From IMG/VR virus record IMGVR_UViG_2778261643_000010: a stretch of DNA of 24,518 nucleotides. One strand, written 5' to 3'. This stretch comes from a virus. Its lineage: Duplodnaviria; Heunggongvirae; Uroviricota; Caudoviricetes. Each line of letters begins with the position of its first letter. Position 1 is the first letter of the stretch. Of this stretch, positions 8,184-8,249 are shown in pieces. A program made the position numbers and the translations under genes. A model generated the notes under the pieces. The model had not been told where the DNA came from, made no database searches, and saw only the letters and a list, made by a program, of their open reading frames with translations.

Positions 8184-8200
8184 ATTGCTCTAATAATTCC
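8184..8200 (+). promoter_or_regulatory. C1 operator-like 17-mer ATTGCTCTAATAATTCC
   Basis: Matches the consensus at 14 of 17 positions and lies immediately after the stop of the 7481-8182 gene. Confidence 0.5.
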
Positions 8201-8205
8201 ATATT

Positions 8206-8240
8206 TTTAAAACGTGATGTACACTCATCACGTTTTTTAT
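8206..8240. terminator. Bidirectional intrinsic terminator hairpin
   Basis: Stem AACGTGATG pairs with CATCACGTT around a 6-nt loop, with an A-run before and T6 after. Confidence 0.6.
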
Positions 8241-8249
8241 TAGAGCAAT
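8233..8249 (-). promoter_or_regulatory. C1 operator-like 17-mer in inverted orientation (ATTGCTCTAATAAAAAA on the minus strand)
   Basis: Matches the consensus at 14 of 17 positions and forms an inverted pair with the 8184 site across the terminator hairpin. Confidence 0.45.

Follow-up and report, generated by a model that had tools for sequence, protein, structure and literature searches.

The window analysed here, that is, the whole stretch of 24,518 nucleotides, belongs to a phage-plasmid of the P1 type. Over positions 7400-9000 its identity is 99.8% to phage RCS47 and 98.9% to both P1 and P7, and as a whole it is collinear with P1 save for one insertion. The element under study, 66 bp in length (8184-8249), occupies the 81-bp gap between two open reading frames of the + strand (7481-8182 and 8264-8482), which correspond to pmgQ and pmgR, and the genes next to it (ppp, pmgQ, pmgR and pmgS according to the P1 annotation) all lie on the + strand. 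pmgQ (7481-8182, TAA stop codon at 8180-8182; the homologous coding sequence is named pmgQ in P1 and hdmD in P7) is the final gene of the upstream pmgL-pmgQ gene row, and pmgR (8264-8482; shtA in P7) is preceded by a Shine-Dalgarno-like AGGTG on the + strand at 8255-8259, 4 nt ahead of its start codon. pmgR belongs to a group of five P1 genes newly recognised as essential, its deletion leaving heads and tails unjoined (PMC9024508), and a comparison of 77 P1-like plasmids places both pmgR and pmgS in the set of the 21 most conserved genes (PMC9603915). Behind pmgS, a terminator scan detected a terminator-like hairpin on the + strand (9767-9795; 11 pairs, 6 of them G:C, then TTTTT) closing the pmgR-pmgS unit, which points to a short insulated unit made up of these two genes. 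This strong hairpin sits between pmgS and pap, and no such annotation was seen in the P1 record.

Some further features of the neighbourhood should be mentioned. In the window, pmgS (8484-9747) carries a run of eight T (8616-8623), where P1 has seven, and this splits the gene into a 47-aa (8484-8627) and a 401-aa open reading frame (8542-9747). The window's version of the homopolymer stretch occurs in none of 137 other loci compared, 68 of which match the T7 version of P1 exactly; the extra T is due to a sequencing error in the homopolymer, or else pmgS, which is not essential, has truly been inactivated. A type I restriction-modification cassette on the - strand (10591-16638), encoding HsdR (1058 aa, with an EcoR124_C domain), HsdS (418 aa) and HsdM (518 aa), occupies the place of pmgT and the following genes in P1. 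The P1 record notes that its flanks there are identical to sequences beside the EcoDXXI and R124/3 hsd loci, and the cassette is common to phage vB_EcoM-673R5. On the - strand at 10375-10397, just downstream of the operator Op88 (10326-10342), there is a G+C-rich hairpin followed by TTTTATTTT, which probably terminates transcription of the inserted hsd operon. The window breaks off within pacB; in P1 the gene after it is c1, and the C1 repressor gene of the same element presumably lies beyond the window end.

The element itself reads ATTGCTCTAATAA-TTCCATATTTTT-AAAACGTGATG-TACACT-CATCACGTTTT-TTATTAGAGCAAT from 8184 to 8249. The two inverted 13-mers described at its ends by the first-pass annotation were recovered by the repeat finder as a perfect inverted repeat, ATTGCTCTAATAA at 8184-8196 and its exact inverse at 8237-8249 (100% complementary), the two arms standing 40 nt apart. 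Nested inside is a second perfect inverted repeat of 11 nt (8209-8219 with 8226-8236), which encloses a 6-nt loop; the hairpin had been described earlier as having a 9-bp stem with an A-run on one side and a T-run on the other, and both runs are indeed present (TTTTTAAAA on the 5' side, TTTTTTATT on the 3' side), but the stem is longer and comprises 11 perfect pairs, with a G/C-containing core of 8 bp (ACGTGATG/CATCACGT). The layout is asymmetric, as the left arm lies 12 bases away from the hairpin and the right arm abuts it. Folded as RNA, the inner hairpin reaches -13.4 kcal/mol (z = -5.5) and the full 66 nt reach -26.4 kcal/mol (z = -10), and none of the shuffled sequences folded as well. 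The 13-mer has three exact copies in the 24.5-kb window (8184 and 10326 on the + strand, 8237 on the - strand), and five matches at up to two mismatches compared with 0.96 expected, a number which no shuffle gave. The inverted repeat and the copies of the 13-mer are far beyond chance.

What had been called operator-like sites from the letters alone are the annotated C1 operators of P1, with a homologous pair annotated in P7. OpmgRa (formerly Op86a; ATTGCTCTAATAATTCC, 8184-8200, + strand) and OpmgRb (formerly Op86b; ATTGCTCTAATAAAAAA, 8233-8249, - strand) coincide with the arms of the inverted repeat in the same position and orientation, between pmgQ/hdmD and pmgR/shtA, and protein-binding features for the phage repressor C1 are annotated at the homologous positions of both phages. 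In the P1 record (AF234172) each site is termed 'monovalent' and noted for the control of pmgR and pmgS expression, the P7 record (AF503408) labels the homologous pair Op(sht[a])/Op(sht[b]), and the window, P1 and P7 are identical over 8184-8250. As to the operators there is no substantive difference from P1 and P7, although the record regions are without a terminator feature and the -10 hexamer is placed there at TAAAAC, not in the hairpin loop. A full-text literature search for 'Op86' returned no P1 paper, and the history of these sites is therefore taken from the GenBank notes. The consensus of the C1 operator is an asymmetric 17-mer, ATTGCTCTAATAAATTT, and 22 operators are dispersed over P1 (PMC8546580). 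Both Op86a and Op86b match this consensus at 13 of 13 core positions and at 14 of 17 overall. The further copies in the window correspond to catalogued operators as well: 10326 is Op88 (OpmgT), 4564 is Op82 (O26) and 21476 is Op94 (Olpa). The long inverted repeat thus arises because two asymmetric C1 sites face each other, 49 bp apart from centre to centre and with 32 bp between the 17-mers; the operator pair is already known as Op86a/b of P1 and is part of the ordinary annotated regulation of this phage.

Compared with other operators of P1, the arrangement shares its parts with several of them but differs in their combination. Op88/PpmgT, Op99e/P4cre, Op94/Plpa and Op99d/P1coi likewise place the same 17-bp asymmetric operator over or next to a sigma-70 -35 hexamer, but are single-site modules, whereas here a second, inverted site follows 32 bp downstream and a hairpin is nested in between. 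Bivalent C1 operators (for example, Oc1ab, composed of Op99a,b) also consist of two inverted C1 sites forming a palindrome, but their 17-mers overlap (28 bp in all), whereas Op86a and Op86b are separated by 32 bp.

To follow the conservation of the element, one set of IMG/VR loci was gathered by a pattern covering the two arms and another by an anchor that does not depend on the element, placed within the first 27 nt of pmgR; the anchored set comprises 115 loci plus the window. In this 115-locus set the two 13-nt arms show 0.08 minor-allele loci per site each, that is, one of the 115 loci varies in each arm, in comparison to 0.7-1.2 in the hairpin arms, 2.0 in the 3' end of pmgQ and 4.9 in the 14 nt between Op86b and the start codon (the ribosome-binding-site spacer). 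A small hairpin within the 3' end of pmgQ (8155-8171, GCTCGTT-TTT-TGAGCGAG) holds positions 8158 and 8169, which are among the most polymorphic sites of the region. Three further lineages, with flanks only about 70% identical to the window, were found: Cronobacter phage JK004 together with one metagenome contig, Salmonella plasmids (for example, pCVMN1543) and the IMG/VR contig L061. In all three the first 12 nt of each arm are unchanged, and some of them have another base at 8249, the outer end of the right arm. Searching genome contigs with PmgS yielded no extra diversity, only two near-identical loci of Escherichia, and a metagenome scan for variants of the D6/JK004 type added one locus only. 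Judged by this comparison, the operator arms are under selection.

The hairpin (8209-8236, + strand; 11 bp, loop TACACT) had been proposed to terminate the upstream operon, and this part of the earlier reading seems plausible for the + strand, where fold and covariation mark it as a candidate intrinsic terminator. The stable stem-loop is followed by a U-tract (TTTTTTATT on the + strand), and the corresponding T-tract TTTTTTAT (8233-8240) directly follows the G/C-containing stem core and is shared with the 3' end of OpmgRb; its positions are invariant in the 23 aligned variants, and two further loci excluded from the alignment carry seven T. The hairpin with its T6 tract is located 27 nt past the pmgQ stop codon. 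Lineages other than P1 carry the hairpin arms ACATGGTG/CACCATGT instead of ACGTGATG/CATCACGT, and two pairs have changed in a compensatory manner (G:C to A:U and A:U to G:C), though these changes trace to a single evolutionary split between the P1 type and the rest, and a palindromic protein-binding site would show them too. Among the 23 distinct variants, 97.6% of cells are in standard pairs, as opposed to 38-72% with slid partners, and no shuffle matched the observed pairing or covariation score. Read as + strand, 247 of 253 cells form standard pairs, including 15 G·U; read as - strand, the number falls to 235 of 253 with three G·U. Independent single-arm changes to G·U number roughly 10 for the + strand and 3 for the - strand, and the three variants favouring - strand pairing are all singletons. 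The compensatory pairs and the G·U asymmetry imply that the hairpin would act as RNA on the strand running from pmgQ to pmgR and, together with the T6 tract found at this distance from the end of pmgQ, they lend comparative support to a terminator on the + strand.

The same data speak against the bidirectional function assigned to the hairpin at first. Rho-independent terminators with an upstream A-tract (the 'bidirectional' form) likewise present a stem-loop between an A-run and a T-run just past a stop codon, but here the full T-tract exists on the + strand only (TTTTTTATT compared with TTTTAAAAA, the - strand stem being followed by TTTT and then AAAAA), the variants break the - strand pairing, and there is no convergent gene on the - strand which would need a terminator, the hsd operon probably having its own at 10397-10375. 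Most likely, therefore, the hairpin is a one-way terminator of the + strand. It should also be noted that a simple consensus scan of 7400-9000 for terminators and promoters passed over the hairpin and reported no promoter in the gap; the hairpin was probably missed because the stem is extended through A·T pairs, leaving only four T in the tail window, and we judge the missed promoter to be a limit of rules which require a final T in the -10. With a stem core of 8 bp and four G:C pairs, termination may be partial. No terminator feature is annotated in the regions of the P1 record examined (78368-94800), a literature search found no Term-seq or 3'-end data for P1, and Rfam, searched with the whole window at gathering thresholds, returned no match, so that no known RNA family accounts for the hairpin.

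The downstream promoter expected from the earlier reading does exist as a prediction, but its position is inside the element, over the first operator and the hairpin, and not beyond the second operator. The P1 record predicts the sigma-70 promoter PpmgR on the + strand at 8185-8213, with TTGCTC (8185-8190) as -35, a 17-bp spacer and TAAAAC (8208-8213) as -10. An alternative candidate on the same strand (8197-8225) consists of TTCCAT (8197-8202), again a 17-bp spacer, and the hexamer TACACT (8220-8225), which is the loop of the hairpin. For the annotated version speaks that its -35/-10 pair and the 11-nt ATTTTTAAAAC recur in the same register after Op88 (10326), which favours a common design. 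ATTTTTAAAAC is located at 8203-8213 behind Op86a and at 10345-10355 behind Op88, and Op99e/P4cre (P1, L138:8844-8851) shares TCTTGATTTTTA with Op88; this suggests that the operator-promoter modules of Op86a, Op88 and Op99e are paralogous copies. The second base of a -10 hexamer is normally the most conserved one. In the annotated hexamer, which is also without the final T, this base (A, 8209) is replaced by G in JK004 and in three P1-type loci. The hexamer in the loop, in turn, ranks top in all four lineages of the P1 group in a heuristic scan (with the -35 at 8197-8203); it reads TACACT in the window and TATCAT elsewhere, and its positions 1, 2 and 6 (T, A, T) are invariant, with variation restricted to positions 3-5 (TACACT, TACGCT, TATCAT). 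Both candidates are weak, with heuristic scores of 4.0-9.4, well under our estimate for a consensus promoter, and these scores, based on frequencies of classical promoter compilations, serve as a guide only. We infer that the best candidate for the -10 is the hairpin loop, and regard the annotated -10 of PpmgR as questionable.

Transcription is predicted to start near 8220 from the annotated promoter or near 8232 from the loop candidate, in both cases inside or after the 5' arm of the hairpin. Relative to the annotated promoter, Op86a spans -36 to -20 and Op86b +13 to +29; relative to the loop candidate, Op86a spans -48 to -32 and Op86b +2 to +18. A late promoter dependent on Lpa was considered as well, as GATGTACACT superficially resembles the LPpac box ATGTGACTT, and was dropped after comparison with four annotated boxes, which in P1 are usually located 4 nt (9 nt in LPhot) upstream of the -10; the 9-bp -22 box of the Lpa-dependent late promoters of P1 (ATGTGACTT, AAGTTACTT, AAATGACTA) is absent from 8184-8263. 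CRISPRi roadblocks in pmgO, pmgP, ppp and pmgQ were not lethal in spite of the essentiality of pmgR, but the knock-down of pmgR itself was not scored as essential either (PMC10695390). Since the latter failed to score, we give the polarity data little weight, and they are weak evidence for a separate pmgR unit.

Looking at more distant P1-like plasmids, we observed the same arrangement with other operator sequences. The Citrobacter freundii plasmid NZ_CP056338.1, whose PmgS is 26% identical, encodes a C1 homologue (25965-26678; 27% identity, E = 5e-25) and contains 11 copies of its own asymmetric operator motif ACAGAnnATACTAAT in intergenic positions compared with 0.01 expected (L139/L140: 13918, 22541, 25202, 31933, 45622, 47623, 49235, 49272, 55919, 66591 and 68530); motif and homologue presumably represent a second immunity specificity of the C1 type. 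Two of these copies form an inverted pair just ahead of the pmgR homologue, separated by 21 bp, with a -10-like TATCAT between them. The Pantoea plasmid NZ_CP034366.1 (L141:977-1032) carries a 20-nt inverted pair of a related motif before its pmgR homologue, with 16 nt in between. Thus, asymmetric repressor-type sites face each other before pmgR with a -10-like hexamer between them in these plasmids too, but of the ACAGAnnATACTAAT type, at shorter spacing (16-21 bp between sites) and with neither an internal hairpin nor a T-tract in the region upstream of pmgR. Since the inverted pair is kept with another operator sequence, the pair before pmgR appears to be an old feature that outlived a change of the operator, which suggests that the paired layout itself is under selection. 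On the lineages compared, the hairpin is a gain of the P1/JK004/Salmonella group, and as the Citrobacter and Pantoea lineages do without it, it does not seem to be required for the operator pair to work.

Several other readings of the element have to be weighed against this. The inner palindrome ACGTGATG-N6-CATCACGT could be a DNA site for a dimeric regulator over the -10 of pmgR rather than an RNA terminator. The best -10 candidate lies within it, a symmetric protein site would be expected to change in both arms together, and in the distant lineages this promoter is regulated although no hairpin is present. A DNA site, however, would lack the bias of the single-arm changes towards + strand RNA pairing (15 versus 3 G·U cells) and would leave the conserved T6 tract directly after the palindrome unexplained, and the distance of 27 nt to the stop codon is typical of a terminator. 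To our knowledge, no candidate regulator has a specificity for the inner palindrome, and we consider such a site unlikely.

A second possibility is that pmgR transcription starts upstream of 8209, in which case its mRNA would carry the terminator as a leader attenuator and antitermination would be needed for pmgR-pmgS. The motif AATAAT inside Op86a (8192-8197) resembles a -10, would place a start near 8204 and appears as a lower-ranked candidate in two lineages, but it has no acceptable -35 in front of it, the sequence there is not shared between the lineages, and for both of the better promoter candidates the predicted start falls within or behind the 5' arm. We know of no P1 antiterminator acting at the pmgR leader and regard attenuation as quite improbable. 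Very improbable is also that the hairpin itself is functionless and merely fills the space between the operators: it does vary more than the operators do (0.7-1.2 minor-allele loci per site) and is absent from the distant lineages, but a neutral spacer would hardly keep 97.6% of its pairing where the flanks are about 70% identical, acquire two compensatory pairs and exceed every shuffle in pairing. Finally, the site-specific recombination site which the first-pass annotation had offered for the long inverted repeat, or a cruciform-forming element, is scarcely credible in spite of perfect 13-bp inverted arms of the same length as those of loxP, as the arms equal the C1 operator consensus, single copies of which occur at promoters in other parts of the window, the asymmetric spacer measures 40 bp compared with 8 bp in lox and is thus no short crossover spacer of the lox/cix type, the neighbours are ppp, pmgQ, pmgR and pmgS and no recombinase gene is adjacent, gene order across the element is the same in all relatives examined, and Citrobacter and Pantoea keep the inverted pair with an operator sequence of their own.

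We therefore return to the operators and the terminator. The 66-bp element is likely the control region of the pmgR-pmgS unit of this P1-type phage-plasmid, and could work as follows. By annotation and conservation, Op86a and Op86b are two 17-bp asymmetric sites for the monomeric C1 immunity repressor, inverted in the gap between pmgQ and pmgR. In the lysogen, C1 bound to both sites would silence the weak sigma-70 promoter lying between or over them, with Op86a occluding the -35 region and Op86b lying across the transcription start or the first transcribed bases. Formed in + strand RNA, the nested hairpin and the U-tract behind it would end transcripts arriving from the upstream pmgL-pmgQ genes. 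Transcripts of the pmgR promoter, starting inside or after the 5' arm with either version of the promoter, would not contain the complete hairpin and would hence escape termination. This escape, together with the strong terminator at 9767-9795, would make pmgR-pmgS an insulated unit gated by C1.

A more far-reaching version of this idea is possible but doubtful as a whole: about 28 bp would be used twice, as the hairpin of the upstream terminator in RNA and, through its loop (TAnnnT), as the -10 of pmgR in DNA, so that the unit's own transcripts escape and two inverted C1 monomers clamp it, and the inverted pair would be an old, conserved architecture of the wider P1-like group which survived a complete change of operator sequence in Citrobacter and Pantoea.

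As a discovery these observations are of small value, the sites being catalogued C1 operators of a model phage which were found again from raw sequence, and the new points are small as well: the comparative support for the hairpin, the doubt over the -10 assigned to PpmgR and the fact that distant lineages keep the layout with paired operators. For the annotation of P1 they do carry some value, since the record regions examined list no terminator at the hairpin, yet the hairpin has comparative support as + strand RNA. The control region of pmgR, an essential gene of head completion, resembles a compact cassette of terminator, promoter and double operator, which could serve engineering as an insulated, C1-switchable expression module.
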